39,836 nucleotides of DNA from Kayfunavirus AN24P4. Position 1 is the first letter of the stretch, and the number at the start of each line of letters is the position of its first letter. Positions 2,944 to 16,587 of this stretch are shown in pieces. The DNA lies in the sequence record OZ035739.1; one strand, given 5' to 3'. Made by a program: the position numbers and the translations under genes. Under the pieces are notes generated by a model, which ran no database searches, was not told the origin of the DNA, and worked only from the letters and a program-made list of their open reading frames with translations.

Positions 2944-2993
2944 AATAACTATAGGTGAAAGCTGCATGAATAAGCAGCTAGTAACCTATAGTT
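2944..2993 (+). repeat. compound inverted repeat immediately 3' of the terminase gene
   Basis: aactataggt (2947-2956) is the reverse complement of acctatagtt (2984-2993); inner hairpin agctgc-N8-gcagct; no U-run follows. Confidence 0.5.
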
Positions 2994-3030
2994 ACTACCA
3001 GTCTAACATACTGTTTTACAAGGAGTTTGG

Positions 3031-3053
3031 ACTTAACTATCACTATAGGGAAG
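3031..3053 (+). promoter_or_regulatory. phage RNAP promoter (phiOR-like, downstream of gene 19)
   Basis: acttaactatcactataGGGaag; matches the 23-bp promoter repeated 11 times in the window; +1 G about 3048. Confidence 0.75.
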
Positions 3054-3233: not shown

Positions 3234-3392
3234 ATGGCAAAGACCAAAGCTGTACTTAAAGCTCTGGCGACCAATCGAGCTACATACAGGTTTCTTGCTG
3301 CTGTTCTACTTGCTGCTGGCGTTACTGCTGGAAGTCAGTGGGTCGGGTGGGTCGAGACTCTCGTATGTTCTCTGGTCTCTAAGTGTAATTAA
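3234..3392 (+). CDS. small hydrophobic protein at gene 19.5 position
   Basis: 52-aa ORF (below ORF-track cutoff) with ggagg RBS, after the phiOR-like promoter; hydrophobic FLAAVLLAAGVTAG segment; assignment by position only. Confidence 0.45.
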   Translation: MAKTKAVLKALATNRATYRFLAAVLLAAGVTAGSQWVGWVETLVCSLVSKCN

Positions 3393-3628
3393 CGCAATCA
3401 TGATAACAATCAACGAAAGGAGGTAGGGATGGACGAGGAGTCTTATGGGTCGTTCTCTGACGAAGATTATCAGACGGAGTGGGAATACGCGCATTGAAGA
3501 CCTAAGGTCAGTTCATAGCTGACGCTACTCTACTGACCTTAGCTACTGTAGTCAAGGACTTTAGGTAACACCTTAAGAGAAGCTCACTTAGGGTCATCCT
3601 ACTTATTGGTCTATCCTAGTGTCGCCTG

Positions 3629-3675
3629 ACCTACGGTCCTTGACCTACAGTGGCTGTGGCCTACAGTAGTGACGA
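3629..3675 (+). repeat. short direct repeats (ACCTACAG family) flanking the terminal repeat, right-end side
   Basis: gacctacggtccttgacctacagtggctgtggcctacagtag; analogous in position to the short ACCTAAAG-type repeats at T7 genome ends. Confidence 0.5.
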
Positions 3676-3705
3676 TGAGTTTTGGACCAAAAGTTTGAGA
3701 CCACA

Positions 3706-3900
3706 TCTCACAGTTCAAGAACCTCAAGTCTCCCCATAGGCCCTCTTTCAGTCCAGACCAATAGTCCCTACCCAGTCTATCATAAGGTTAGACCGATGGT
3801 CAAGACTTCAGGTCAACGATAGGTTGTGGCTATGGCTTAGGGAAGGACGATAGGTAGGGACTATTGGTCTGTCTTTGAGTCTCTATCTGTATCAGACCTT
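3706..3900 (+). repeat. probable direct terminal repeat / concatemer junction (collapsed single copy); boundaries approximate
   Basis: Begins with tctcacag (as the T7 left end TCTCACAGTG) and ends near gtctttgagtctctatctgtatcag resembling the end of the T7 terminal repeat; non-coding; lies between right-end genes and early promoters. Confidence 0.45.
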
Positions 3901-3902
3901 GA

Positions 3903-3985
3903 GTCACTACCTACAGTCTAACTACCTACAGTCATCGATCATCGGTAATGCCGCTACCTACAGTCAGAGACCTACGGTTAATAGA
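3903..3985 (+). repeat. short direct repeats (CTACCTACAGTC family), left-end side
   Basis: cactacctacagtctaactacctacagtcatcg...gctacctacagtcagagacctacgg; three to four copies of a CTACCTACAG core. Confidence 0.5.
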
Positions 3986-4230
3986 CACAAGGCTATAGAC
4001 TTAAGGTCTAAGACATGTTAGTCAAAGACTACATCCTCTTACACCATGGGGCCGACGATAGCTTAATCAATATTATTTCAAATTACCTATTGACTATAGG
4101 TCCAGATTATGGCCTAATAGCTTCCGTCAACACGACACGGCAACAACCGGATAGTGAAGACGCCTGGTCATCCCGGTTAAGTAGACAGCCTGATAAGTCA
4201 TACGAACAACAGGCAGATGACAGAAAGTAG

Positions 4231-4260
4231 TTGACAAGCAGTAACGATAAGATGTAAGCT
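4231..4260 (+). promoter_or_regulatory. candidate host sigma70 early promoter (T7 A2/A3-like)
   Basis: TTGACA (4231-4236), 18-bp spacer, TAAGCT (4255-4260); flanking sequence resembles the T7 A2/A3 region (gataagtagacagcctgataagtc ... gtaccacat); a second weaker candidate has TTGACT near 4090. Confidence 0.35.
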
Positions 4261-4449
4261 GTACCACATCGAAACAACGGTGACGACCGACACTGAAACG
4301 GTCTACCTGAAGTCCTCTGACTGAAGGGAATGCTCTTTAACAATCTGGATAAACTCTTAATGTGCGCCGATAGCGACTAACTACAGGGTCTTTGAGTCTA
4401 CATCTGAAGGCCCTGACTGATAGTCACTAACAACCTAAGAGGATTCATT

Positions 4450-4728
4450 ATGAGACTGAACAAAGCTACAGCAGAAGCCTTTCGCAAGGAGCTTGAATCA
4501 AGATTATTGTGTGGAGTGGCGGAAGGAGCCGCTCGATATAAAGAGAATGGTCTAACGTTCAAGCGCTTTATGTGGGATTGCTATCACGGAGTGGGCCATA
4601 AAAAGTCGCAGGAAATAATCACCAGCAACAATGCAGAAGTGCAAGTGATAGGAGGATATATGGCTAACGTGAAGGATTCACACATCGAGACCATGCTTAA
4701 GAATGCACTTAAAGATGTAGCCTACTAG
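4450..4728 (+). CDS. hypothetical early protein (92 aa), first gene of the early operon, upstream of ocr
   Basis: ORF with RBS taagagga 7 nt upstream; no match to T7 proteins I can recall; position 0.3 in T7 is occupied by ocr, here shifted one gene downstream. Confidence 0.65.
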   Translation: MRLNKATAEAFRKELESRLLCGVAEGAARYKENGLTFKRFMWDCYHGVGHKKSQEIITSNNAEVQVIGGYMANVKDSHIETMLKNALKDVAY

Positions 4729-4808
4729 TGATTAACTACAGGTCGTTAGACTGATAGCGGCCTGACTGATAGTCACTAAAACATACTTAACTTTGAGAGG
4801 ATATAACT

Positions 4809-5141
4809 ATGGAACGTAACGCTAACGCATACTATGAGCTGCTGGCTGCAACCGTTGAAGCATTTAACGAGCGTATTCAGTACGACGAAATAGCTGAAGG
4901 AGATGACTACCACGATGCGCTGCATGAAGTCGTAGACGGTCAGGTTCCGCACTATTACCACGAGATTTTCACGGTGATGGCTGCTGATGGTATTGACCAT
5001 GAGTTTGAAGACTCTGGGCTGATGCCTGATACCAAGGATGTGACGCGTATACTGCAAGCTCGCATCTATGAGGCGCTTTATAACGACGTGGCTGATATCT
5101 TGGATGTAGTCTGGTTTGAGGCTGAAGAGGGAGACGAGTGA
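4809..5141 (+). CDS. ocr: Ocr DNA-mimic anti-restriction protein (T7 gp0.3-like)
   Basis: 110-aa acidic ORF; collinear with T7 Ocr ([63 protein letters not shown]); acidic C-terminal tail. Confidence 0.9.
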
Positions 5142-5296
5142 TGGTAACTTACGGTCTCTGTCAGCATCACGTCACCAACGCCCGGAGTATGGTCAAGACC
5201 GGGCAATTAAACCACGATGCGACTATGCGTCACCTGAAAGCGGTCTATGAGGGCCGCAAGCGCATACACGACAGTTTGCACGCTGAGGATAAGTAA
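5141..5296 (+). CDS. small early protein (51 aa), gene 0.4 position
   Basis: ATG overlaps ocr stop (TGATG), implying translational coupling; same size as T7 gp0.4 but no sequence similarity seen. Confidence 0.4.
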   Translation: MVTYGLCQHHVTNARSMVKTGQLNHDATMRHLKAVYEGRKRIHDSLHAEDK

Positions 5297-5409
5297 CGTG
5301 TATCATAGCCTGACCATAACGCTGACAGGCGGGTACTGAGTGATAGACGAGAGGTCATCGACTGATAGGTGGCCTCAAAGATTACCACTTGAATTAATAG
5401 GAGTTAACT

Positions 5410-5499
5410 ATGAGTGTGGGATATTGGGTCTGCCTAGCGCCAGTTATCTGGATGATAGGCTATGGGTTATATGACTGTATTAAACGGAAATCACTATGA
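5410..5499 (+). CDS. small hydrophobic peptide (29 aa)
   Basis: RBS aataggag; hydrophobic YWVCLAPVIWMIGYGLY; stop overlaps the next start (ATGA). Confidence 0.35.
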   Translation: MSVGYWVCLAPVIWMIGYGLYDCIKRKSL

Positions 5500-5693
5500 G
5501 TCTTGCACTATTGATAGCCATAGGCTATGGACTTATCGCCTACGTGCTGGTGAGTGACATTAACAAGGCGCGTAAAGTCTACAAATTCAACTATGTACGT
5601 CTGGGCCGCTGGACCGTACGTCAACCTAACGGACGATTCATGCGCAACCTAGCGAACGTATGGGATATAGCAACCTTAGGGAGCAAACTGTAA
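5496..5693 (+). CDS. small membrane protein (65 aa), early region
   Basis: N-terminal TM helix LALLIAIGYGLIAYVLV then basic tail; coupled to the upstream peptide ORF. Confidence 0.5.
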   Translation: MSLALLIAIGYGLIAYVLVSDINKARKVYKFNYVRLGRWTVRQPNGRFMRNLANVWDIATLGSKL

Positions 5694-5743
5694 TGCGCAA
5701 GACTTGTAGCAAGCGCACTCAAATATCTTCAGGAGAATAAGTA

Positions 5744-5962
5744 ATGAATATAATTAAGGCAGCCACGGAGTCTATTAGCGCCATATTCCTACCACGGCAA
5801 GAGGTATGTACCTCCCACAAGTTCGTACTATCTTGCGTTGTCGGCGACGAGTTTGATGGTTTTGATAAGCTCGTTGTATGTGATTATTGTGGTCAAGAAG
5901 CTATACAGCACTCAAACGGTAAATTCGAACTAATTAACGAGGAAGGGGGACGGCGATGGTGA
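5744..5962 (+). CDS. Cys-rich small early protein (72 aa), possible zinc ribbon
   Basis: RBS aggaga; Cys pairs (C-x6-C and CDYC) suggest a metal-binding fold; unknown function. Confidence 0.5.
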   Translation: MNIIKAATESISAIFLPRQEVCTSHKFVLSCVVGDEFDGFDKLVVCDYCGQEAIQHSNGKFELINEEGGRRW

Positions 5963-6249
5963 ATAACAAAAACAACGTATTTGGATACTTGGTGACAGGC
6001 TACCGACACGGAACCTCAAGTCACACCGCACGTCAACAGCAGGAGCGGGACCGGGTACTGCAAGCAAGACTCCGGGCTGAGGGCCATAAGTCCGAACTGT
6101 TGTGTCTGGCGTATGGTGGACGACCAATCACTGATGATGGTAAACTTCTGGTCTCAGGCTGGAAGGCGATAGACCAACGGTCAACCATCAAGCACACGAC
6201 CCATGGTGACTTCAGCCATCTTCACGCTAACCCACTGATATGCAAGTGA
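5956..6249 (+). CDS. hypothetical early protein (97 aa)
   Basis: ORF overlapping the previous gene end; basic, His/Arg-rich; sits where T7 has the gp0.7 kinase but is far smaller and lacks kinase motifs. Confidence 0.5.
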   Translation: MVNNKNNVFGYLVTGYRHGTSSHTARQQQERDRVLQARLRAEGHKSELLCLAYGGRPITDDGKLLVSGWKAIDQRSTIKHTTHGDFSHLHANPLICK

Positions 6250-6254
6250 TTCTG

Positions 6255-6277
6255 ACTTAACTATCACTATAGGACTC
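6255..6277 (+). promoter_or_regulatory. phage RNAP promoter directly upstream of the RNAP gene
   Basis: acttaactatcactataGGActc; +1 about 6272; followed by tandem gactttaagt / aagtgaaagac repeats up to the RNAP ATG. Confidence 0.7.
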
Positions 6278-6346
6278 AAGGTCTAAGACTCCAAGTGAAA
6301 GACCAAAGAGACTTTAAGTGAAAGACTAATAACAAGGACTTTAAGT

Positions 6347-9028
6347 ATGAGCGTCATCTCTATTGACAAACACGACTTCTCTGATGTGTCTAACGCCATT
6401 GAGCCGTTTAACCTGCTGGCTGACCACTACGGGCAAGACCTTGCAGTCAAACAGCTTCAGCTTGAGCACGAGGCATACACTGAAGGCGAGCGACGTTTCA
6501 TCAAAAACCTTGAGCGACAGACTGAGCGCGGGGAACTGGCAGACAATCAGGTAGCCCAGCCTTTGATGCAGACTCTGGTCCCTAAGATTGCGCAAGCCGT
6601 CAGGGAGTGGCATGAAGGTCCAGACGGGAAGCTGTCAACCTCTCGTCCGAGCGTATCGTTCACCATGTTAAGCACTGAAGAGAAGGCCGTCAAGGACCGC
6701 TCTCTTCGCATCTCCTGCGAGTCTGCTGCGGTTATCATACTGAAGGTCATCCTCTCCAAGCTGGTCAAGCCTGAAGGTATACCGATTACACCGATGGCCT
6801 CCGCGATAGGTCGCACACTTGAGGATGAAATCCGATTCGGTCGCATTCGTGACAAGGAGAAGGAGCACTTCAAGAAGGCGATAGCTGATAACCTGAACAA
6901 GAGAGCCGGGGCATCATACAAGAAAGCCTACATGCAAGCGGTCGAGACATCCATGCTGGAGCAAGGCCAACTAGAAGATGCGTGGGGAACTTGGAGTCCG
7001 ACCGAGGCTGTCCACGTTGGAATCAAGATGCTGGAGATTGTCATCCAGTCAACACAACTGGTCGAGCTTAAGCGTTACGGTGCTGGCAATGCAGCGGCTG
7101 ACGTTGAGATGGTCCACCTGTCAGACTTCTGGGTCAAGAAGATGGCACAACGCGGCTTCAGCCTTGCGGGTATCGCTCCAGTCTACCAACCTTGCGTAGT
7201 TCCACCTAAGCCGTGGACTGGTGTCGTAGGCGGGGGGTACTGGGCCAAAGGTCGCAGACCATTACCACTGATTCGCTTAGGGTCTAAGTCTGCGGTGGAA
7301 CGTTACGAAGACGTGTATATGCCTGAAGTCTATGACGCTGTTAACATCATCCAGAATACACCTTGGAAAGTGAACAAGAAGGTTCTGGACGTGGTGAACA
7401 TGGTCGAGAAGTTGAACAACACGCCTATTGATGACATCCCTCAGATGGAGCCACTGAAGCCTGAAGAATATGCGGGTGAGACTGAAGAGGAACTCAAGGC
7501 GTGGAAGAAAGCGGCTGCTGGTATCTATCGCCGCGAGAAGGCCAGACAGTCACGCAGGTTGTCGCTGAGCTTTATCGTTAACCAAGCGAACAAGTTCTCT
7601 CAGTTCAAGGCCATCTGGTTCCCGTATAACATGGACTGGCGCGGTCGCGTCTACGCTGTGCCGATGTTCAACCCTCAGGGTAACGACATGCAAAAGGGTC
7701 TCCTGACTCTGGCAGTCGGTAAGCCTATTGGTGCTGATGGTTTCAAATGGCTGAAGGTCCACGGGGCAAACTGTGCGGGTGTCGATAAAGTCACCTTCGA
7801 GGAGCGCATCAAGTGGGTGGAAGACAACCACGACAACATCATGGCTGCTGCTAAGGCACCGATGGATAGCATTGAGTGGTGGGGCAAGTTAGACTCTCCT
7901 TTCTGCTTCCTTGCGTTCTGCTTCGAGTATGCTGGCGTGATGCACCACGGATTGTCTTACTCCTGCTCGCTGCCGATAGCTTTCGATGGGTCCTGCTCTG
8001 GGATTCAGCACTTCAGCGCTATGCTTCGTGACCACATCGGTGGACATGCAGTAAACCTAACGCCATCCGGTAAGGTCCAAGACATCTACCGCATCGTGTC
8101 TGACCGCATTGAGGAGGAGCTTAAAGTCCTGCTGGTTAACGGCACGGATAACGAGATGGTAACTCACGAGGACAAGAAAACTGGTGAGATTACCGAGCGT
8201 CTCAAGCTGGGGACACGAGAGCTGGCCCGGCAGTGGCTGACTTACGGTATGTCACGCAAGGTTACTAAGCGCTCAGTCATGACTCTGGCCTATGGGTCGA
8301 AAGAGTACGGCTTTGCAGACCAAGTTTACGAGGACATCGTGATGCCAGCGATTGACTCAGGGTCTGGCGCTATGTTCACTGAACCAAGCCAAGCGTCTCG
8401 CTTCATGGCTAAGATGATTTGGGAAGCTGTGAGTGTGACCGTAGTTGCTGCAGTTGACGCGATGAAGTGGCTTCAAGGTGCTGCCAAGCTGCTGGCGGCT
8501 GAAGTGAAGGACAAGAAGACTGGAGAAATCCTGAAGCCTTGCCTTCCGGTACACTGGGTCACACCTGATGGGTTCCCGGTCTGGCAGGAATACCGCAAGA
8601 AGGATACCACTCGTCTGAACCTGATGTTCTTAGGGTCCTTCAACCTTCAGCCTACCGTCAACAAAGGCACGAAGAAGGAGTTGGATAAGCACAAGCAGGA
8701 GTCAGGAATTAGCCCGAACTTCGTCCACTCACAAGATGGTAGCCATCTCCGCAAGACTGTAGTCCACACTCACCGCAAGTATGGCGTGATGTCATTCGCA
8801 GTGATTCACGATAGCTTCGGGACCATCCCGGCTGACGCTGAGTATCTGTTCCGTGGTGTCCGTGAGACGATGGTCGAGACCTACCGCGATAACGATGTGC
8901 TGCTTGACTTCTACGAGCAGTTTGAATACCAACTTCATGAGAGCCAGCGCGACAAGTTGCCTGAGCTTCCGAAGAAAGGTAAACTGAATATTGAGGACAT
9001 TCTATCTTCAGACTTTGCATTCGCTTAA
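6347..9028 (+). CDS. single-subunit DNA-dependent RNA polymerase (T7 gp1-like)
   Basis: 893-aa ORF collinear with T7 RNAP over its whole length (FGRIRD, PWTG..GGGYWA, FPYNMDWRGRVYA, GIQHFSAMLRD, HDSFGT, C-terminal SDFAFA). Confidence 0.97.
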   Translation: MSVISIDKHDFSDVSNAIEPFNLLADHYGQDLAVKQLQLEHEAYTEGERRFIKNLERQTERGELADNQVAQPLMQTLVPKIAQAVREWHEGPDGKLSTSRPSVSFTMLSTEEKAVKDRSLRISCESAAVIILKVILSKLVKPEGIPITPMASAIGRTLEDEIRFGRIRDKEKEHFKKAIADNLNKRAGASYKKAYMQAVETSMLEQGQLEDAWGTWSPTEAVHVGIKMLEIVIQSTQLVELKRYGAGNAAADVEMVHLSDFWVKKMAQRGFSLAGIAPVYQPCVVPPKPWTGVVGGGYWAKGRRPLPLIRLGSKSAVERYEDVYMPEVYDAVNIIQNTPWKVNKKVLDVVNMVEKLNNTPIDDIPQMEPLKPEEYAGETEEELKAWKKAAAGIYRREKARQSRRLSLSFIVNQANKFSQFKAIWFPYNMDWRGRVYAVPMFNPQGNDMQKGLLTLAVGKPIGADGFKWLKVHGANCAGVDKVTFEERIKWVEDNHDNIMAAAKAPMDSIEWWGKLDSPFCFLAFCFEYAGVMHHGLSYSCSLPIAFDGSCSGIQHFSAMLRDHIGGHAVNLTPSGKVQDIYRIVSDRIEEELKVLLVNGTDNEMVTHEDKKTGEITERLKLGTRELARQWLTYGMSRKVTKRSVMTLAYGSKEYGFADQVYEDIVMPAIDSGSGAMFTEPSQASRFMAKMIWEAVSVTVVAAVDAMKWLQGAAKLLAAEVKDKKTGEILKPCLPVHWVTPDGFPVWQEYRKKDTTRLNLMFLGSFNLQPTVNKGTKKELDKHKQESGISPNFVHSQDGSHLRKTVVHTHRKYGVMSFAVIHDSFGTIPADAEYLFRGVRETMVETYRDNDVLLDFYEQFEYQLHESQRDKLPELPKKGKLNIEDILSSDFAFA

Positions 9029-9044
9029 TAACAGGAGAGACAAC

Positions 9045-9245
9045 ATGCAATTCGAACACCGTGTATCAAACGTACCTGGTGGTAACAAGGTCGTAACAGT
9101 AACAATGGCGGCTGGCAAGGGTCTATTCAAAGTTACTATGGTCCCGACTGGAACGGCTAAGGCCAAAGGTATCAGCCAGAAGGAGCTGATTCAGGTAATC
9201 CAGTGGTCGCACGAGAAGGCCCTACGGGAAGAGGCAACCAAATGA
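9045..9245 (+). CDS. hypothetical protein (66 aa) immediately after RNAP
   Basis: Internal ATG at 9045 with RBS caggagag; ORF-track start 8991 overlaps RNAP and is unlikely. Confidence 0.5.
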   Translation: MQFEHRVSNVPGGNKVVTVTMAAGKGLFKVTMVPTGTAKAKGISQKELIQVIQWSHEKALREEATK

Positions 9246-9320
9246 CAGACCTACAGTTACTGGCCTTGTGGCTGGGAGCACTAGCAGTATTCATTTTAGT
9301 CCAACGCAGAAGAGGTTAAC

Positions 9321-9343
9321 CCTAAACTATCACTATAGGATTA
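9321..9343 (+). promoter_or_regulatory. phage RNAP promoter (phi1.1-like)
   Basis: cctaaactatcactataGGAtta; +1 about 9338. Confidence 0.75.
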
Positions 9344-9385
9344 GACTCAAGGTCATGACTCAAAGTCGTGGCCTTCATGATTAAC
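9341..9385 (+). promoter_or_regulatory. RNase III-type processing hairpin (R1.1-like), copy 2
   Basis: ttagactcaaggtcatgactcaaagtcgtggccttcatgattaac; same arms as copies at 297 and 16527. Confidence 0.5.
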
Positions 9386-9416
9386 CCTAAATAAACACTA
9401 CTGGAGATTTAACCGT

Positions 9417-9596
9417 ATGTATCAGAACACTATCAACTTCGAGCGCATCCGTGAACGTCAGCAGACTGAAGGTTACATCCCGAAGGGCCGCAAGCTGAAC
9501 AAGACCAAGCGTGGCGGTGGTATCAAAGGCGCTTTCCGAAACGCTGAAGGTAAAGACTCTCTGGTCAACCAAGAGAAATACTTCGTAGGAGCATAA
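9417..9596 (+). CDS. gp1.1-like small basic protein
   Basis: 59-aa ORF (below ORF-track cutoff); basic RKLNKTKRG motif as in T7 gp1.1; precedes the gp1.2 homolog. Confidence 0.65.
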   Translation: MYQNTINFERIRERQQTEGYIPKGRKLNKTKRGGGIKGAFRNAEGKDSLVNQEKYFVGA

Positions 9597-9600
9597 CTCT

Positions 9601-9858
9601 ATGGGCCGACTTTATAGTGGCAACCTCAACGCTTTCAGAGCAGCGTGTAACAGGCTTTATCAGTTAGACTTCTGCGTGATACAGCAGGACTGGTACGACG
9701 CGCATCTTCGGAAAGAGTGCATGAGACTTCAAGTCGAGGACCGAGCTGGTAACATCTTCGCGCTTAAGACCTTCGCACACCGCGATGAAGACGTACTGTA
9801 CAACACTGCAACAGGCTTCATTAACTGTCTCGCTAACCAACTCGACACATGGAGATAA
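9601..9858 (+). CDS. gp1.2-like dGTPase (Dgt) inhibitor
   Basis: 85-aa ORF strongly similar to T7 gp1.2 (MGRLYSGNL.AF.AA.N.L.QLD..VI..DWYDA...K.C.RL..EDR.GN). Confidence 0.85.
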   Translation: MGRLYSGNLNAFRAACNRLYQLDFCVIQQDWYDAHLRKECMRLQVEDRAGNIFALKTFAHRDEDVLYNTATGFINCLANQLDTWR

Positions 9859-9862
9859 CACA

Positions 9863-10948
9863 ATGACAACTATTAAAACTAACCCGCACCGCTCTGTAGA
9901 TTACTCTGAGTCTGGCGTTAAGAAGGCTTTGGAAGCTGCCGGGTCTCTCGAAGCTGAAGTGAAGTACGATGGTGTCCGGTTGAACCTTCCGGTCTTCCCT
10001 ACTGGTGAGACTCAATGGTTGAGCCGTGAGTCTAAACCTCTTCCAGCCTTGGAGTGGATGAACTCTGAGTTAGGTAATGCGTGGACCCAAGCTGACTGGC
10101 GATGGTTCCTGCGTCAAGCTGGCTACGAAGGCGTGGGCTTGATGATTGATGGCGAGGTAATGGTCAAAGGCGTGGACTTCAATACCTCCTCAGGTCTCAT
10201 CCGAACGAAGTGGCTCAAGCCTAACAACGAGGAGTTCGCTGAATACTATTCGCCGGGCCGTGGAAAGAAGCTCCCGTTCTGGGGAGCCAGGTCACGACTT
10301 CAGGTTGTGGTATATGGCGTTGTCGATATGACAACCATAGCAGACCCGAAAGCAGAAGGTCCTATCCATAGCGTAACCCGCCTGAAGGCTGAAGCTATCG
10401 TCCCTCTCCTCCAGAAATACTTCCCGGAAATCGACTGGGTTCTGTCTGAGTCACACACGGTCTATGACCTTGAGTCGCTCAACTCCCTGTACGAACAGAA
10501 GCGTCTGGAAGGACATGAGGGTCTGGTAGTCAAGGACCCACTGGGTAAGTACAAGCGTGGCAAGAAGTCTGGCATGTGGAAAATGAAGCCTGAGGAGACC
10601 ATCGACGGGACCGTGTGTGGCCTCGTGTGGGGGACTCCTGGTAAGGCTAACGAAGGTAAGGTCATCGGCTTTGAGGTTCTACTGGAGGATGGCATGGTGG
10701 TCAACGCCTGTGGTCTGACTGAAGAACAGAAGGACGAGTTTACGGCTAAGGTCAAGGAGGACACGCTTGCTGCGGTTGGCATCTTTGCGCCGTACGGCAT
10801 TGGTGGTAACGAACCTTGCTTCGATAACCCATACGAAGGCTGGCAGTGTGAAGTCCTCTTCATGGAGAGGTTCCCTGATGGCTCCCTTCGTCACCCCAGC
10901 TTCAAGTGCTGGCGTGGAACCGAAGACAACCCAACGGTGAAGTCATGA
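9863..10948 (+). CDS. ATP-dependent DNA ligase (T7 gp1.3-like)
   Basis: Start at internal ATG 9863 (RBS ggaga); IKTNP, KYDGVR (adenylation Lys motif), EGHEGLVVKDP, WKMKPE, GSLRHPSF collinear with T7 ligase. Confidence 0.92.
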   Translation: MTTIKTNPHRSVDYSESGVKKALEAAGSLEAEVKYDGVRLNLPVFPTGETQWLSRESKPLPALEWMNSELGNAWTQADWRWFLRQAGYEGVGLMIDGEVMVKGVDFNTSSGLIRTKWLKPNNEEFAEYYSPGRGKKLPFWGARSRLQVVVYGVVDMTTIADPKAEGPIHSVTRLKAEAIVPLLQKYFPEIDWVLSESHTVYDLESLNSLYEQKRLEGHEGLVVKDPLGKYKRGKKSGMWKMKPEETIDGTVCGLVWGTPGKANEGKVIGFEVLLEDGMVVNACGLTEEQKDEFTAKVKEDTLAAVGIFAPYGIGGNEPCFDNPYEGWQCEVLFMERFPDGSLRHPSFKCWRGTEDNPTVKS

Positions 10949-11124
10949 GTACACAACTTTATATCAACATAGCAAGTGGTCAACTCTACGCTGTGGTAAA
11001 TGGCGAGCTGTGGTATCGTAAACTCAAGAAGTGGGCCAAGTCCTACTACGATGAAGAGACAATATCAACCATGAGTCATCGCTACCGTAAGGCTGCTAAG
11101 GTGAACAACTTTAAGATGCGTTAA
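10945..11124 (+). CDS. small protein (59 aa), gene 1.4/1.5 position
   Basis: ATG overlaps ligase stop (ATGA); assignment by position only. Confidence 0.45.
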   Translation: MSTQLYINIASGQLYAVVNGELWYRKLKKWAKSYYDEETISTMSHRYRKAAKVNNFKMR

Positions 11125-11128
11125 CGTC

Positions 11129-11167
11129 AACCCAGTGGTCTTAGGACTGCTGGGTTTCTTTGCTTCT
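11129..11167 (+). terminator. putative intrinsic terminator for host RNAP (TE-like)
   Basis: aacccagtggtc-ttag-gactgctgggtt: 12-bp stem with two G-U pairs and a tetraloop, followed by tctttgcttct. Confidence 0.45.
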
Positions 11168-11183
11168 GGGCCACCAGCTAGAC

Positions 11184-11206
11184 CCTAAGCTATCACTATA
11201 GGACAA
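11184..11206 (+). promoter_or_regulatory. phage RNAP promoter (phi1.5/1.6-like)
   Basis: ccctaagctatcactataGGAcaa; +1 about 11201. Confidence 0.7.
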
Positions 11207-11232
11207 CCCTAACCGACCAAAGGAGAAACCTT

Positions 11233-11487
11233 ATGTCTAAAAACTTAATGTTCAACCGATTTACTCGAAGCTTCCACCTGTCGCATAGCCCATTCAGCTT
11301 CCATAAAGCTAATCAACCATTACCCCGCTTTGGTAAGACAGTGGCTCTGTCTCCAGCAGTTCATGCGCTAGTCACCCGCAAGTCTATGCTGAAGGCTATG
11401 GATAAAGAACAAGTTGATGTGCCTGTGGTCATTACAAAATGGCCTCGCATTAAGCTGGCACTTCTGGTAATTAAGGAGGCGCTCTGA
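11233..11487 (+). CDS. gp1.6-like protein
   Basis: 84-aa ORF; resembles T7 gp1.6 as far as I recall (LSPAVHALVTR, C-terminal LLVIKEAL); my recollection of that protein is imperfect. Confidence 0.55.
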   Translation: MSKNLMFNRFTRSFHLSHSPFSFHKANQPLPRFGKTVALSPAVHALVTRKSMLKAMDKEQVDVPVVITKWPRIKLALLVIKEAL

Positions 11488-11819
11488 TGACATACTGTGA
11501 TAGCACCACATACTGTGAAGCGTGTAATGGTGACGACCGCTTCCCGCACGTTGGTAAACTTGTAGGTAACAAACTACAAGAAATTGATGACGTCCGCAAG
11601 CCGTCCCACTATCAGGTCTTTGATAGCGTGGAATCCATTGAGATTATCGCACGGTCAATGACTGTGAGTGAGTTCCGTGGGTTCTGCATGGGTAACGTCC
11701 TGAAGTATCGACTCCGGGCTGGTAAGAAGTCCGAACTGGCTACTATGGAGAAGGACCTGAACAAAGCATCCTTCTATCAGAAGCTGTTCGACTTGCATAA
11801 AGGTAAGTGCTATGCTTAA
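11487..11819 (+). CDS. gp1.7-like nucleotide kinase (C-terminal-type domain)
   Basis: 110 aa; KPSHYQVFDSVESIEIIARSMTVSEFRGFCMGNVLKYRLRAGKKSELA..EKDL.KA.FY..LF..HKGKCYA closely matches the T7 gp1.7 C-terminal half. Confidence 0.7.
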   Translation: MTYCDSTTYCEACNGDDRFPHVGKLVGNKLQEIDDVRKPSHYQVFDSVESIEIIARSMTVSEFRGFCMGNVLKYRLRAGKKSELATMEKDLNKASFYQKLFDLHKGKCYA

Positions 11820-11899
11820 TGATATTGTGTATTACTGTGTAGTATGCGCCGGAGTTGGAGCACTAATCCTTTTAATATATTGGGCCATAGAGGTGTAAT

Positions 11900-11998
11900 A
11901 TGGAAAAGCCGAGTGAGTGGTGCGAGCGTAAATTTGAGGAGACAGGTAACGTCGATTACCTTCAGCTCTACAACTTATGGAAGGAGCGTGGTCTATGA
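11900..11998 (+). CDS. gp1.8-like small protein (32 aa)
   Basis: [11 protein letters not shown]...[12 protein letters not shown] resembles T7 gp1.8; stop overlaps the next gene start. Confidence 0.45.
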
Positions 11999-12153
11999 CT
12001 GACGTAGAGAAGAAGTACATCGTGGAGCTTGAGGGTCGCATTCAGTCCTTCGAGGTTCCGGTGTACGCAAAGTCTCTTGAAGAGGCTACCCTGAAGTCCC
12101 AAGAGTATGAGGACGCTGGGTTTGTGGTCGGACGGATTCGCCCTGAGACCTAA
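11995..12153 (+). CDS. gp2-like host RNA polymerase inhibitor
   Basis: 52 aa; [14 protein letters not shown] and C-terminal GF.V.R.RP resemble T7 gp2. Confidence 0.6.
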
Positions 12154-12171
12154 ACTATCACTGTAGGACAG
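12149..12171 (+). promoter_or_regulatory. phage RNAP promoter variant (phi2.5-like)
   Basis: cctaaactatcactGtaGGAcag; one substitution at about -3 relative to the consensus. Confidence 0.55.
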
Positions 12172-12210
12172 ACGTCCAGTTCGTAACTTTAAATTAGGAG
12201 ATTTACACCG

Positions 12211-12909
12211 ATGGCTAAAGAGCAACTGAAGACTTTCACCACTCCGGTAGCTGGTATCGTTGAGCCTTACGCATGGCTGAACAAAGCAGACACCAAGTTT
12301 AATGAGCGTGGTGAGCATAAGGTTAACCTGACTTTCAGTCTGGATGACCCGAAGGTCCGTAAGATGATTGATGTCTTACAGAAGATTCACGACGATGCGT
12401 ATGCGAAAGCACTCGCAGACCACGAGAAGAACCCACCTCAGGTTCAGCGTGGCAAGAAGCCTATCGAGCCGCGCGAAGGCGATATGCCGTGGATTGAGAA
12501 TGGGGACGGTACTGTTACCATGAAGTTTAAATGCTTTGCGTCTTACCTGAAAGACGGCAAGTCAGAGCCTATCGTATTACGGTTCTACGACACTGATGCT
12601 AAGTTAATCCGTGACGTCCCGAATATTGGCGCTGGCTCCAAACTGAAGGTCAAGTTCAAAGTCCTGCCGTTCAAGTGGAACGCTGCGACTGGTGCAAGCG
12701 TTAAGCTCCAGCTTGAGTCCTGCCTTCTGGTAGAACTGAAGGAGTGGAAAGGTGATGGTGCTGGTGGTGATGGTGGCTGGGGTGACGATGAAGACCTCGG
12801 TACTGGGTACAAAGCGTCAACCGATGGTGACTTCGGGTCTGATGACTTCGGTGACGATGGTTCCGAAGGTGGTGACGACTCCAGCTCTGGTGGCGATTAC
12901 GACTTCTAA
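12211..12909 (+). CDS. single-stranded DNA-binding protein (T7 gp2.5-like)
   Basis: 232 aa; OB-fold region plus Gly/Asp-rich acidic C-terminal tail ending in F (GGDYDF), the gp2.5 hallmark. Confidence 0.92.
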   Translation: MAKEQLKTFTTPVAGIVEPYAWLNKADTKFNERGEHKVNLTFSLDDPKVRKMIDVLQKIHDDAYAKALADHEKNPPQVQRGKKPIEPREGDMPWIENGDGTVTMKFKCFASYLKDGKSEPIVLRFYDTDAKLIRDVPNIGAGSKLKVKFKVLPFKWNAATGASVKLQLESCLLVELKEWKGDGAGGDGGWGDDEDLGTGYKASTDGDFGSDDFGDDGSEGGDDSSSGGDYDF

Positions 12910-13364
12910 TGGCCCAATGGTCTGCAAAACGGGGGCACTCTGTGGGTGCCTACCGCTCTGGACTTGAAGCCAAGAACCAGCAGTGGCTGGAACAGAACGG
13001 CGTCAAAGCGGAGTACGAAAGCCATTATATCAACTATGTGATTCCGGCTTCCGACCACAAGTACACACCAGATTTTATCCTTCCAAACGGTATCATCGTG
13101 GAGACCAAAGGTATCTTCGATAGTGATGACCGTAAGAAGCACCTTCTGGTACGAGAACAGCACCCAGAGTTAGACATCCGGTTCGTGTTCTCAAGTTCAC
13201 GCTCCAAGCTATACAAAGGGTCCCCGACCACGTATGGCGCATGGTGCGAAAAGAACGGCTTTAAGTTTGCCGACAAGTTTATCCCTGTTGAGTGGCTGCG
13301 AGAGGCGACTGTACGTCTGCCTTCAGGTATACTCATTCCCAAGAAGAAAGGAGTTAAGAAATGA
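12909..13364 (+). CDS. endonuclease I, Holliday-junction resolvase (T7 gp3-like)
   Basis: 151 aa; YVIPAS.H.YTPDF.LPNGI.VETKG...SDDRKKHLL.REQHPELDIR.VFSSSR.KLYKGSPT.YG collinear with T7 gp3. Confidence 0.92.
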   Translation: MAQWSAKRGHSVGAYRSGLEAKNQQWLEQNGVKAEYESHYINYVIPASDHKYTPDFILPNGIIVETKGIFDSDDRKKHLLVREQHPELDIRFVFSSSRSKLYKGSPTTYGAWCEKNGFKFADKFIPVEWLREATVRLPSGILIPKKKGVKK

Positions 13365-13852
13365 GCCAGAAGTTTAAACTGTTAGTAGATATATGTGGTT
13401 GGCCTCGTGGGACTATCGTTACCAAGTGTAAGAAGGGCCCAGCTCCGTTGCCTGGCCTTACCCTAGTTGAGTGCCAGACTCCAGGCAAATACAAACATGG
13501 GCCTAACGGCTTCAATACTCAGCCTAAGGGCATGTGGGGAGCATGGATTGCTGACAGATATATTGAGGAAATCAAACCAGAAGAGGAACTCACTGGTGTA
13601 CAGACCACTCAAGTCCTTCCAGCTTCGAGCGTACCTCCTGTGACAGTGAAACGCGAAGTCCTGACAATCGACAAGATTGGGGTGGGCCAGACGTTCATCG
13701 TCCACGGAAAGCCTGACGAAGTTTACGTGAAGATCAGCAACTCACACGTCTTCAACCATAAGCGTCTCCAGATGCATACCACGGACGCACAACGCTTCAC
13801 CCAGCATCTGAATCTAGTGGTCGTAGAATTGGTGGTGTACAATGGTAAGTAA
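13361..13852 (+). CDS. hypothetical protein (163 aa) inserted between endonuclease I and lysozyme genes
   Basis: ORF overlapping gene 3 stop (ATGA) and overlapping gene 3.5 start; no counterpart in canonical T7 gene order; no recognisable motifs. Confidence 0.65.
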   Translation: MSQKFKLLVDICGWPRGTIVTKCKKGPAPLPGLTLVECQTPGKYKHGPNGFNTQPKGMWGAWIADRYIEEIKPEEELTGVQTTQVLPASSVPPVTVKREVLTIDKIGVGQTFIVHGKPDEVYVKISNSHVFNHKRLQMHTTDAQRFTQHLNLVVVELVVYNGK

Positions 13853-14300
13853 GGTACAGTTCAAACCGCGCAGCCGTACAGACGCAATCTTCGTCCACTG
13901 TAGCGCAACCAAGCCAGAGATGGACATCGGGGTAGAGACCATCCGTATGTGGCACAAGCAGCAAGGCTGGCTGGACGTAGGCTACCACTTTATCATCAAG
14001 CGCGACGGTACTGTGGAAGAGGGTCGCCCGGTCAATGTCGTAGGGTCACACGTTAAGGACTGGAACTCACGGTCTGTAGGCGTCTGCCTTGTAGGTGGAA
14101 TTGACGCTAAGGGCAAGTTTGAAGCTAACTTCACTCCGGCCCAGATGAACTCACTGCGCAACAAGCTGGCTGACCTGAAGGTCCTGTATCCTCAGGCAGA
14201 AATCAAAGCACACCATGACGTAGCACCAAAGGCGTGTCCAAGTTTCGACTTGCAACGCTGGCTGTCTACCAATGAACTGGTAACTTCCGACCACGGTTAA
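13842..14300 (+). CDS. lysozyme / N-acetylmuramoyl-L-alanine amidase, RNAP inhibitor (T7 gp3.5-like)
   Basis: 152 aa; DAIFVHCSATKP, WLDVGYHFIIKRDGTVE, SIGVCLVGGID.KGKF.ANFTPAQM, HH.VAPKACPSFDL nearly identical in pattern to T7 gp3.5. Confidence 0.93.
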   Translation: MVSKVQFKPRSRTDAIFVHCSATKPEMDIGVETIRMWHKQQGWLDVGYHFIIKRDGTVEEGRPVNVVGSHVKDWNSRSVGVCLVGGIDAKGKFEANFTPAQMNSLRNKLADLKVLYPQAEIKAHHDVAPKACPSFDLQRWLSTNELVTSDHG

Positions 14301-14323
14301 TAAACTCTAAAGGAGAACACTCA

Positions 14324-14539
14324 ATGATTAAACTTATCGAATTTCTTGGTCGTCTGGTGGTGCGTGGTTATCGTCGTGCTGCGGTTATGGAACGAAAGGT
14401 AGCAGAGAAGACTGCCGATGGTGCGGCGGATGCTGCTGCTCTGGCTGACAAGCTGACCATCGCGTCACTGGAAGCTGGCATGAAGGCGCGTCAGGCTGAC
14501 ACCAAAGCCGACCAGTTGTCTCAGTTCTTCAAAGCCTAA
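14324..14539 (+). CDS. small conserved T7-group protein (71 aa), N-terminal hydrophobic helix and Ala/Lys-rich C-terminus
   Basis: RBS aaaggaga; MIKLIEFLGRLVV then coiled-coil-like AEKTADGAADAAALADKL, ends QLSQFFKA; resembles a small T7 gene-4-region protein but exact ortholog uncertain. Confidence 0.55.
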   Translation: MIKLIEFLGRLVVRGYRRAAVMERKVAEKTADGAADAAALADKLTIASLEAGMKARQADTKADQLSQFFKA

Positions 14540-14557
14540 ACTATCACCTTAGGGATG
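14535..14557 (+). promoter_or_regulatory. degenerate phage promoter-like sequence upstream of gene 4
   Basis: cctaaactatcacCTtaGGGatg; two substitutions at about -4/-3; probably weak. Confidence 0.35.
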
Positions 14558-14604
14558 GGACCGTGAGTCCTGTCCCTCTGTTCGCATTTGTGATTAAGGA
14601 GTGA

Positions 14605-16308
<1,704 letters not shown>

Positions 16309-16323
16309 ATGTCAATGCCCTGA

Positions 16324-16524
16324 GTGCGATTGGAAGTCACCATACGGAGGACACCATTAGTGTTTAAGAAACTTAAAGCTCGATACCATCGGTTCATGTA
16401 CAAATGGTGGAGCGATGAAGCAACCTGCCTGTCGAACATTCTGGGAGACCAGCGGTTCAACTCTGCGGCATGGAAGAAAGCTAACCGGAAGTTCATGTAT
16501 CACTTCTTGCGTACAGACTTCTAG
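16324..16524 (+). CDS. hypothetical small protein (66 aa), gene 4.3-4.7 position
   Basis: ORF between primase-helicase and DNA polymerase; basic; assignment by position only. Confidence 0.45.
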   Translation: MRLEVTIRRTPLVFKKLKARYHRFMYKWWSDEATCLSNILGDQRFNSAAWKKANRKFMYHFLRTDF

Positions 16525-16526
16525 GT

Positions 16527-16570
16527 CTAGACTCAAGGTCATTCACATCGAGTGGCCTTTATGATTAGAC
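16527..16570 (+). promoter_or_regulatory. RNase III-type processing hairpin (R4.7-like), copy 3
   Basis: ctagactcaaggtcattcacatcgagtggcctttatgattagac; same arms as copies at 297 and 9341. Confidence 0.5.
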
Positions 16571-16587
16571 TAAACGGAGGATTAACC

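Follow-up and report, generated by a model that had tools for sequence, protein, structure and literature searches.

The window analysed here is a stretch of 39,836 nucleotides (nt; 39.8 kilobases, kb) from Kayfunavirus AN24P4 (sequence record OZ035739.1), which covers the genome of a K1F/EcoDS1-type coliphage (genus Kayfunavirus, Studiervirinae) in full and in circularly permuted form, and our subject is the short region between a small early gene and gene 1, the gene of the phage's own RNA polymerase. DNA identity over window positions 5000-9100 is 98.7% with Kayfunavirus AN17P1 and 94% with EcoDS1, and gene 1 itself shows 94-99% DNA identity to Kayfunavirus RNA polymerase genes. The stop codon of the upstream open reading frame (ORF) lies 5 nt upstream of the promoter at 6255, and the locus is laid out as follows.

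5956-6249 (+): upstream early gene, gp0.38-like (phrog_7066, function not known; the EcoDS1 counterpart is gp0.38)
6255-6277 (+): phage RNA polymerase promoter, -17 to +6 (ACTTAACTATCACTATAGGACTC), near-consensus and conserved
6272-6346 (+): 5' leader of the phage-promoter transcript, 75 nt to the ATG at 6347, made of six degenerate units
6347-9028 (+): gene 1, single-subunit T7-type RNA polymerase of 893 amino acids (Pfam RNA_pol 1.5e-106, RPOL_N 3.6e-15)

The promoter ahead of gene 1

The full phage promoter that an earlier note on this DNA had placed about 75 nt before the polymerase start codon was recovered exactly, with the 20-mer ACTTAACTATCACTATAGGA at 6255-6274, the initiating G (+1) of its TATAGG at 6272 and the ATG at 6347. 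Searching the window with ACTTAACTATCACTATAGGA at up to three mismatches returned 10 matches, all on the + strand (expected 0.00). The copy ahead of gene 1, which is the leftmost phage promoter after the left end of the genome, shows one difference from the genome consensus ACTAAACTATCACTATAGGA, and the same variant is found in two other promoters. Its position is likewise conserved, at 75-81 nt ahead of the gene 1 ATG in 13 of 13 aligned GenBank Kayfunavirus genomes. Among 120 IMG/VR loci with the 16-mer ribosome site, an N-terminus like that of the RNA polymerase (RNAP) follows in 20, and the promoter motif was present in 20/20 of these versus 0/100 of the others. All 33 relatives examined (13 from GenBank and 20 from IMG/VR) carry the promoter at gene 1, and the region is matched by ~220 phage records, with 95-99% identity across more than 140 of them.

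These observations are further strengthened by Cronobacter phage CtuP_B1, in which 10/10 promoters, the one at gene 1 included, carry ACCCTCACT at the place where the window promoters carry ACTATCACT, and no cross-matches of the two cores were found between the window and CtuP_B1 genomes. Judged by these sequences, the specificity region at gene 1 (-7 to -12) has changed together with the rest of the cognate promoter set in CtuP_B1. Positions -9 to -11, which form no pairs in the hairpin described below, track this specificity, and therefore constraint on a hairpin arm alone cannot explain the change. Because it is a copy of the genome consensus, is conserved in place and switches with specificity in CtuP_B1, the gene 1 promoter is very probably functional, with a predicted +1 at 6272. 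The K1F specificity loop is reported to drive K1F-type promoters orthogonally in vivo (PMC3458549).

The gene 1 promoter is already known as an annotated feature, since the same element at the orthologous position is recorded as promoter 'phi' (2244-2266) in Escherichia phage EcoDS1 (EU734172) and as 'predicted promoter' (1814-1836) in Citrobacter phage CR44b (HG818823). There the site follows gp0.38/0.42 by 5-6 nt and precedes gene 1 by 70 nt, with the same promoter sequence and a leader that is the same or almost the same. The two records annotate the promoter only, with no leader repeats or hairpin, and otherwise no difference of substance was found. In a third genome, PE3-1 (KJ748011, L004), the orthologous phage promoter at 454-476 is labelled 'host RNAP promoter', which is probably an annotation slip. 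Variation within promoter sets was also observed: in Dev2 (L016) the gene 1 promoter (2379-2398) alone reads CACTAAAGG, the others reading TATAGG, TTTAGG or TGTAGG, and in Kc166A (L017) the five leftmost promoters (3279-14760, the gene 1 promoter included) read TGTAGG and most of those to the right TATAGG, with CACCATAGG at 12157.

Leader units and the predicted read-through hairpin

Transcripts from this promoter would begin with a leader of 37% GC (63% A+T), 64% purine and 43% A. The elements that lie within the leader, or that join it to the promoter, are given below.

6293-6303 (+): direct repeat 1, copy a (AAGTGAAAGAC), which provides the hairpin with its apical AGT and the greater part of the AGACC arm
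6316-6326 (+): direct repeat 1, copy b (AAGTGAAAGAC), of which AGTGA (6317-6321) pairs with the promoter core TCACT (6264-6268)
6310-6319 (+): direct repeat 2, copy a (GACTTTAAGT), which contributes to the hairpin's 3' arm
6337-6346 (+): direct repeat 2, copy b (GACTTTAAGT), which separates the Shine-Dalgarno AAGGA (6334-6338) from the ATG
6274-6287 (+): leader unit 1, following GG, ACTCAAGGTCTAAG
6288-6301 (+): leader unit 2, ACTCCAAGTGAAAG
6302-6310 (+): leader unit 3, ACCAAAGAG
6311-6324 (+): leader unit 4, ACTTTAAGTGAAAG
6325-6337 (+): leader unit 5, ACTAATAACAAGG
6338-6346 (+): leader unit 6, ACTTTAAGT
6261-6324 (+): predicted irregular RNA hairpin of 64 nt (-17.4 kcal/mol, z = -2.86, 1 of 200 shuffles as good)
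6275-6283 (+): CTCAAGGTC, the 5'-arm motif of T7-group RNase III-type hairpins (9-mer match)

The direct repeats described earlier at 6293/6316 and 6310/6337 are exact, AAGTGAAAGAC and GACTTTAAGT each having two copies in the whole window and none on the other strand. In 20,000 dinucleotide-preserving shuffles of the leader, a repeat of at least 11 nt arose in 0.3% and one of at least 10 nt in 1.2%. A repeat search returned three to four degenerate copies of ~17 nt (at 6271, 6285, 6308 and 6335), and unit borders were set by splitting the leader between RG and ACY, which yields six units of ~14 nt that begin with ACY. On this division of the sequence the two direct repeats are no separate elements but the places where units 2, 4 and 6 have best kept their common sequence; their presence in the leader stands, and their status as distinct units gives way to that of fragments of a larger degenerate array.

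The leader of the window contains six GAC, at +2, +16, +30, +39, +53 and +66 (shuffle mean 2.05, P = 0.0012). We distinguished four leader types, namely A (the K1F clade, including the window), B (Dev2, IME278, Ro45lw and EP1), C (Kc166A) and D (IMG/VR L118), and each has exactly six GAC at about +2, +16, +30, +40, +55 and +70, spaced 9-16 nt apart (P = 0.0002-0.002 each, values that are not independent as the types are homologous), despite wide divergence of the sequence between these anchors. The density of GAC as a genome-wide outlier was considered and rejected, since 80-nt windows with six GAC number 8 on the + strand and 6 on the - strand and are not rare in coding parts, which leaves the regular spacing, the non-coding context and the conservation as the only notable aspects.

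The exact repeats themselves are not strictly conserved, copy a of repeat 1 being replaced by CAGTTTAAAGAC or CAGTTAAAGAC in IMG/VR L021 and L102, and copy a of repeat 2 reading GACTCTAAGT in L125, L052 and L102. AGTGA is retained in leader types A, B and C and not in D, Kc166A carries GACTTAAAGT twice at the places of the K1F-clade GACTTTAAGT pair, and every leader type has private exact repeats of its own. The ribosome site (AAGGA, 8 nt, ATG) is invariant in all relatives, as AAGGACTT(T/A)AAGTATG, and interrupted palindromes of the form ACT-N3-AGT occur in the units at 6288, 6311 and 6338. A leader built of such repeats is undescribed so far. As a separate observation, the repeats contain GTG-initiated mini-frames at 6295-6321 (GTG AAA GAC CAA AGA GAC TTT AAG TGA) and 6318-6329 (GTG AAA GAC TAA), which have no convincing Shine-Dalgarno ahead of them and are probably meaningless.

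Folded alone from +1, the leader is no better structured than its shuffles (z = +0.78). The predicted hairpin at 6261-6324 brings the promoter core and the leader together through outer pairs CT/AG (6261-62:6323-24), TCACT/AGTGA (6264-68:6317-21) and AGG/CTT (6271-73:6312-14) and inner pairs CTC/GAG (6275-77:6308-10), GGTCT/AGACC (6280-84:6300-04) and ACT/AGT (6288-90:6294-96), and as modelled it can form only in upstream-initiated, that is, host-made read-through transcripts. Its lower stem is kept between leader types and extended differently: in the window (type A, z = -2.86) TCACT/AGTGA forms 5 base pairs (bp) extended by CT/AG across an A·A mismatch, in Dev2 (type B, z = -2.29) UAUCACUAAAG/CUUUAGUGAUA forms a perfect stem of 11 bp, completed by a -2 A that is found in that genome's gene 1 promoter only, and in Kc166A (type C, z = -2.48) UAUCACU/AGUGAUA forms 7 bp. 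An Rfam search of 5800-6700 at E <= 10 returned one match only, a spurious small nucleolar RNA.

The position of the hairpin is that of the RNase III site R1 of the T7 group. In phiYeO3-12 a stem_loop annotated as 'putative RNase III site R1' lies at 3245-3293, with gene 1 starting at 3313 (a gap of 20 nt), and it is likewise an intergenic irregular hairpin just before gene 1. The 5' motif shared with the T7-group sites is CTCAAGGTC in the window and TACAGGTC in Kc166A, the latter matching R1 of both T7 and phiYeO3-12. The gene 1 hairpins and the T7-group sites also have in common a lower stem of the UAUCACU/AGUGAUA type. The segment GGACTCAAGGTC at 6272-6283 fits the 5'-arm motif (A)GA-CTCAAGGTC, and CTCAAGGTC further stands at the head of canonical hairpins at window positions 302, 9346 and 16532 and at T7 positions 1438, 5858, 13864 and 18512, the latter four being the RNase III sites R0.5, R1.1, R4.7 and R6.5 reported by Dunn and Studier (1983). 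Stem-loops that match these, R1 among them, are annotated in phiYeO3-12. The three window hairpins (~293-344, 9338-9387 and 16524-16572, all on the + strand; z = -3.3, -3.9 and -2.1) carry the full signature CTCAAGGTC...GGCCTT(T/C)ATG(A/G)TT, and the one at 9338-9387 begins at the +1 of the promoter at 9321.

At the T7 sites R1.1, R3.8, R6.5 and R13, as here, a promoter lies inside or against the hairpin, so that promoter-initiated RNA lacks part of it. The phi6.5 promoter sits between both motif halves at T7 18512, and the cores of phi3.8 and phi13 are located in predicted hairpin arms. Because these promoters too lie within such hairpins, a promoter folded into a processing hairpin is, by analogy, a familiar T7 design.

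Proposed self-transcription of gene 1 and its alternatives

Taken as a whole, the locus is best explained by a working promoter for the phage's own polymerase through which gene 1 would be self-transcribed, combined with a hairpin at the R1 position in host-made RNA and with the direct repeats as fragments of leader units, and we put the probability of this whole explanation at roughly 0.8. Promoter activity, feedback and RNase III cleavage are here read from the sequence, its conservation, its co-evolution with polymerase specificity and the thermodynamics of the hairpin. The upstream host promoter bears on this explanation.

4090-4126 (+): counterpart of the first annotated host-RNAP promoter of EcoDS1 (33/37 positions match EcoDS1 469-505, 'host RNAP promoter')

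Host promoters were located by homology to the EcoDS1 annotation, a sigma-70 scan of 3800-6500 having given no more sites than shuffles, and the element at 4090-4126 is likely to be the source of the first, host-made gene 1 transcripts. The prerequisites of feedback are present, namely a cognate promoter directly upstream of gene 1, the counterpart of a host promoter, all genes on the same strand and no terminator-like site (0 in 3800-6500). A consensus scan of the window found zero phage promoters between the one at 3031 and 6255.

In the mechanism we propose, host RNA polymerase would initiate early in infection at sigma-70 promoters around 4090-4260, close to the left genome end, and read across the early genes and the site into gene 1. 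The first phage polymerase made would then also initiate at G6272 and transcribe its own gene, giving a positive feedback presumably limited by the general late shut-down of early and middle promoters that is known from T7-type phages. The phage-promoter transcript would carry an A-rich, weakly structured leader of 75 nt with a strong and invariant ribosome site at its end. In the longer, host-made RNA, and in no other, the promoter core would pair with the leader to form the irregular 64-nt hairpin, at the place of R1 in T7, T3 and phiYeO3-12, where it most likely marks a point of processing or stabilisation of the early polycistronic RNA. Some of the six units would thus serve as arms of the hairpin, and the last as the ribosome site. 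That a phage promoter here would create positive feedback on polymerase synthesis, as the earlier note had proposed, is the natural reading because the promoter is correctly placed, conserved and co-evolving with polymerase specificity; it is oriented to gene 1 with no terminator between, and self-boosting of polymerase synthesis is, from these sequence features, probable. A further idea, that the ribosome site is hidden in the phage-promoter transcript alone, by pairing of the internal GACTTTAAGT with the copy beside the ATG, had its hint from a first pass with a common coding tail and was rejected: with the true flanks the difference in opening energy ranged from -3.0 to +0.8 kcal/mol over 13 variants with no consistent sign, and the opening energy was low (2-7.6 kcal/mol) in both transcript isoforms.

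Several points weigh against this explanation. T7 does well without a gene-1-proximal promoter, and the benefit of feedback is an assumption; no Kayfunavirus transcript data or transcriptome were found in the literature searched. On the side of the hairpin, the canonical 3' motif GGCCTTTATGATT is absent, and where the T7-group sites have a 3' half of GGCCTT(T/C)ATGATT, within which T7 RNase III cleavage falls, AGACCAAAGAGACTTTAAGTGA stands here in its place. No compensatory double changes were found among 11 distinct type A sequences, a null that is uninformative rather than negative; 16/21 pairs never vary, one pair is broken in NS1, and the type D leader lacks the AGTGA partner. The hairpin also gives no reason for six GAC at ~14-nt spacing in four leader types. 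The proposal that the repeats act as processing signals is accordingly upheld in part, by the hairpin with the promoter core, its R1 position and the 5' motif, and not by the 3' motif or covariation. RNase III processing at the gene 1 hairpin is thus advanced tentatively from the modelled fold, at somewhat less than even odds.

The main alternatives concern what the repeats are for. They may have no function of their own, being relics of slippage duplications or of a recombined cassette of promoter plus RNase III 5' arm that were kept where they overlap the hairpin or the ribosome site. This is possible if on the whole doubtful: the leader start GGA-CTCAAGGTC equals the cassette that follows other promoters (window 9321, GGATTAGACTCAAGGTC; promoters of Dev2 and Kc166A, with GGATAGACTCAAGGTC or GGATTAGACTCAAGGTC next), exact repeats are private to each leader type, and parts of the repeats are dispensable in relatives, but GAC count and spacing are alike in four leader types despite diverged intervening sequence, and the 95-99% identity across more than 140 records is high for a neutral spacer. 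The repeated units might instead be binding sites, that is, DNA or RNA operators, for a phage or host factor that restrains self-amplification of the polymerase, in keeping with a unit architecture that outlasts divergence between the anchors (six GAC spaced 9-16 nt apart, P = 0.0002-0.002 for each leader type), with the ACT-N3-AGT palindromes at 6288, 6311 and 6338, with the GACTTAAAGT pair of Kc166A at the positions of the K1F-clade GACTTTAAGT pair, and with the MarR sites proposed to flank the RNAP-gene promoter in temperate T7-like phages (PMC10134795). We consider this quite improbable, as no helix-turn-helix, MarR or other recognisable DNA- or RNA-binding regulator was found among the eight early ORFs (Ocr and seven without known function), copy a is constant in neither repeat (replaced in L021 and L102 for repeat 1, variable for repeat 2), the type D leader has no internal copy of the ribosome-site spacer, and the GAC statistics come from homologous leader types in a genome where 8 stretches of 80 nt on the + strand and 6 on the - strand hold six GAC. 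The operator role suggested for the repeats in the earlier note finds no support: there is no recognisable regulator among the early genes, and isoform-specific masking of the ribosome site failed. A related and rather unlikely reading would make the leader a conserved cis-regulatory platform of six ~14-nt units anchored by (A/U)A(A/G)GAC(U/C), the last being the real ribosome site, that is read by a trans factor or the 30S subunit to set polymerase translation.

Other explanations concern the promoter. The earlier view that T7 expresses gene 1 only from host promoters is a textbook simplification, because the T7 record has phiOL at 405, upstream of gene 1. In T7, K11, BA14, Yepe2 and phiYeO3-12, phiOL lies upstream of gene 1, so that transcripts can include gene 1 as they can here, but there it stands close to the left end, ahead of the host promoters and separated from gene 1 by 2-3 kb, and these phages lack a gene-1-adjacent promoter, whereas EcoDS1 and the window have no phiOL and their leftmost phage promoter abuts gene 1. 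The position of the leftmost phage promoter is what sets Kayfunavirus apart from T7. The promoter could accordingly stand in for the missing phiOL, either as an origin at which transcription primes replication or as the first site at which the phage polymerase can begin to draw the remaining DNA into the cell, transcription of gene 1 being a side effect. T7 origins consist of a phage promoter and an A+T-rich stretch, and the leader here is 63% A+T and has CTTTAAG-type motifs and its ribosome site in common with the T7 leader from phi1.1B to gene 1.1, which lies in the T7 primary origin; the rep_origin annotated in phiYeO3-12 also begins inside a phage promoter. That T7 leader has the identical ribosome site GGACTTTAAGTATG (T7 5996-6009), CTT(T)AAG motifs, an A+T-rich composition and a class II-type promoter in common with ours, but it has two GAC only and no 14-nt periodicity, and it serves gene 1.1, not gene 1. 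Against an origin, the displaced + strand offers only AGGTC (6279-6283) across the leader and none of the canonical primase sites GGGTC, TGGTC and GTGTC (TGGTC is found on the - strand only, which has six GTC), the type B leader lacks a canonical site as well, and the phi1.1-like promoter at 9321, which has the usual context, could itself be the origin. Transcripts from 6272 must in any case contain gene 1, and we judge replacement of phiOL to be an improbable account of the site. Finally, the element could be an RNA processing hairpin only, with a 5' arm that resembles a promoter by chance and has no promoter activity, given that the promoter core lies within the predicted hairpin. This appears far-fetched: all 20 positions fit the promoter consensus whether paired or not, the unpaired -9 to -11 of CtuP_B1 changed along with the other nine promoters, and active T7 promoters also lie inside such hairpins.

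Genome surroundings, related systems and significance

Two further phage promoters frame the site.

3031-3053 (+): left-hand neighbour phage promoter, after gene 19, corresponding to phiOR (consensus match)
9321-9343 (+): next phage promoter downstream of gene 1, phi1.1-like (consensus match), followed by the canonical RNase III-type hairpin at 9338-9387 (z = -3.87)

The gene 19 position is occupied by an ORF of 589 amino acids at 1167-2936. Directly after its stop, and ~40 nt before the phiOR-like promoter at 3031, a two-tier hairpin was observed at 2946-2994 (+), with arms TAACTATAGGT/ACCTATAGTTA and inner AGCTGC/GCAGCT (-23.9 kcal/mol, z = -6.2, equalled by 0/200 shuffles); no T-run follows it, and its arms are similar to the promoter core (AACTATAGG). 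The true left genome end is placed near 3706 because EcoDS1 1-218 aligns with window 3706-3926. Around this inferred end and the terminal repeat, at 3630-3978 (+), lie seven same-strand copies of CCTACRGT, which has 16 copies in the whole window versus 2.8 expected; the cluster probably corresponds to the arrays of short repeats found beside T7-type terminal repeats and concatemer junctions. The early region differs from that of EcoDS1 (window 4243-4761 vs EcoDS1 621-943), two of the three annotated EcoDS1 host promoters having no counterpart here. Additional small ORFs are present at 4015-4230 and 4450-4728 (phrog_30192 and phrog_9817, no known function), and no kinase ORF of the size of gene 0.7 was found in the early region of the window.

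Among earlier records of the site, a 2026 genome note lists the repeat at the 3' end of the gene ahead of the polymerase gene (PMC13298934). The closest precedent for the proposed circuit is Pseudomonas phage LUZ100, in which phi1, mapped by ONT-cappable-seq, lies directly upstream of the polymerase gene and feedback after host read-through has been proposed (PMC10134795), so that the idea of self-amplifying polymerase transcription is already published for that phage. Both phages have a phage-specific promoter directly upstream of their own RNA polymerase gene, but LUZ100 has a mapped start, a MarR-like repressor and an integrase, whereas the present phage has a predicted start, is of the strictly lytic Studiervirinae type and has no recognisable repressor. 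An engineered counterpart also exists.

In the synthetic T7 autogene, reportedly built by Dubendorff and Studier in 1991, a T7 promoter drives T7 RNA polymerase, and lac repression together with lysozyme is said to have been needed for tolerance. As here, a polymerase gene stands under its own promoter with positive feedback; the autogene is engineered, whereas the present arrangement is natural and confined to the lytic cycle.

A polymerase that transcribes its own gene forms a simple positive-feedback switch, and the artificial T7 version has been hard for synthetic biologists to tame. To what was annotated before, our analysis adds co-evolution evidence for promoter function, the placement of the promoter as the 5' arm of a hairpin predicted for read-through RNA at the R1 position, and the recognition of the two repeats as members of a conserved six-unit leader. 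Polymerase/promoter pairs of the K1F type already serve as orthogonal expression parts. If the unlikely platform reading of the leader were true, an RNA polymerase autogene would here have a brake or gain control of natural origin, which is not described for T7-like phages. Lytic coliphages of an entire genus, among them K1F, EcoDS1 and many therapy candidates, appear to be naturally wired in this self-transcribing manner, and they could show how such feedback stays useful and not harmful.

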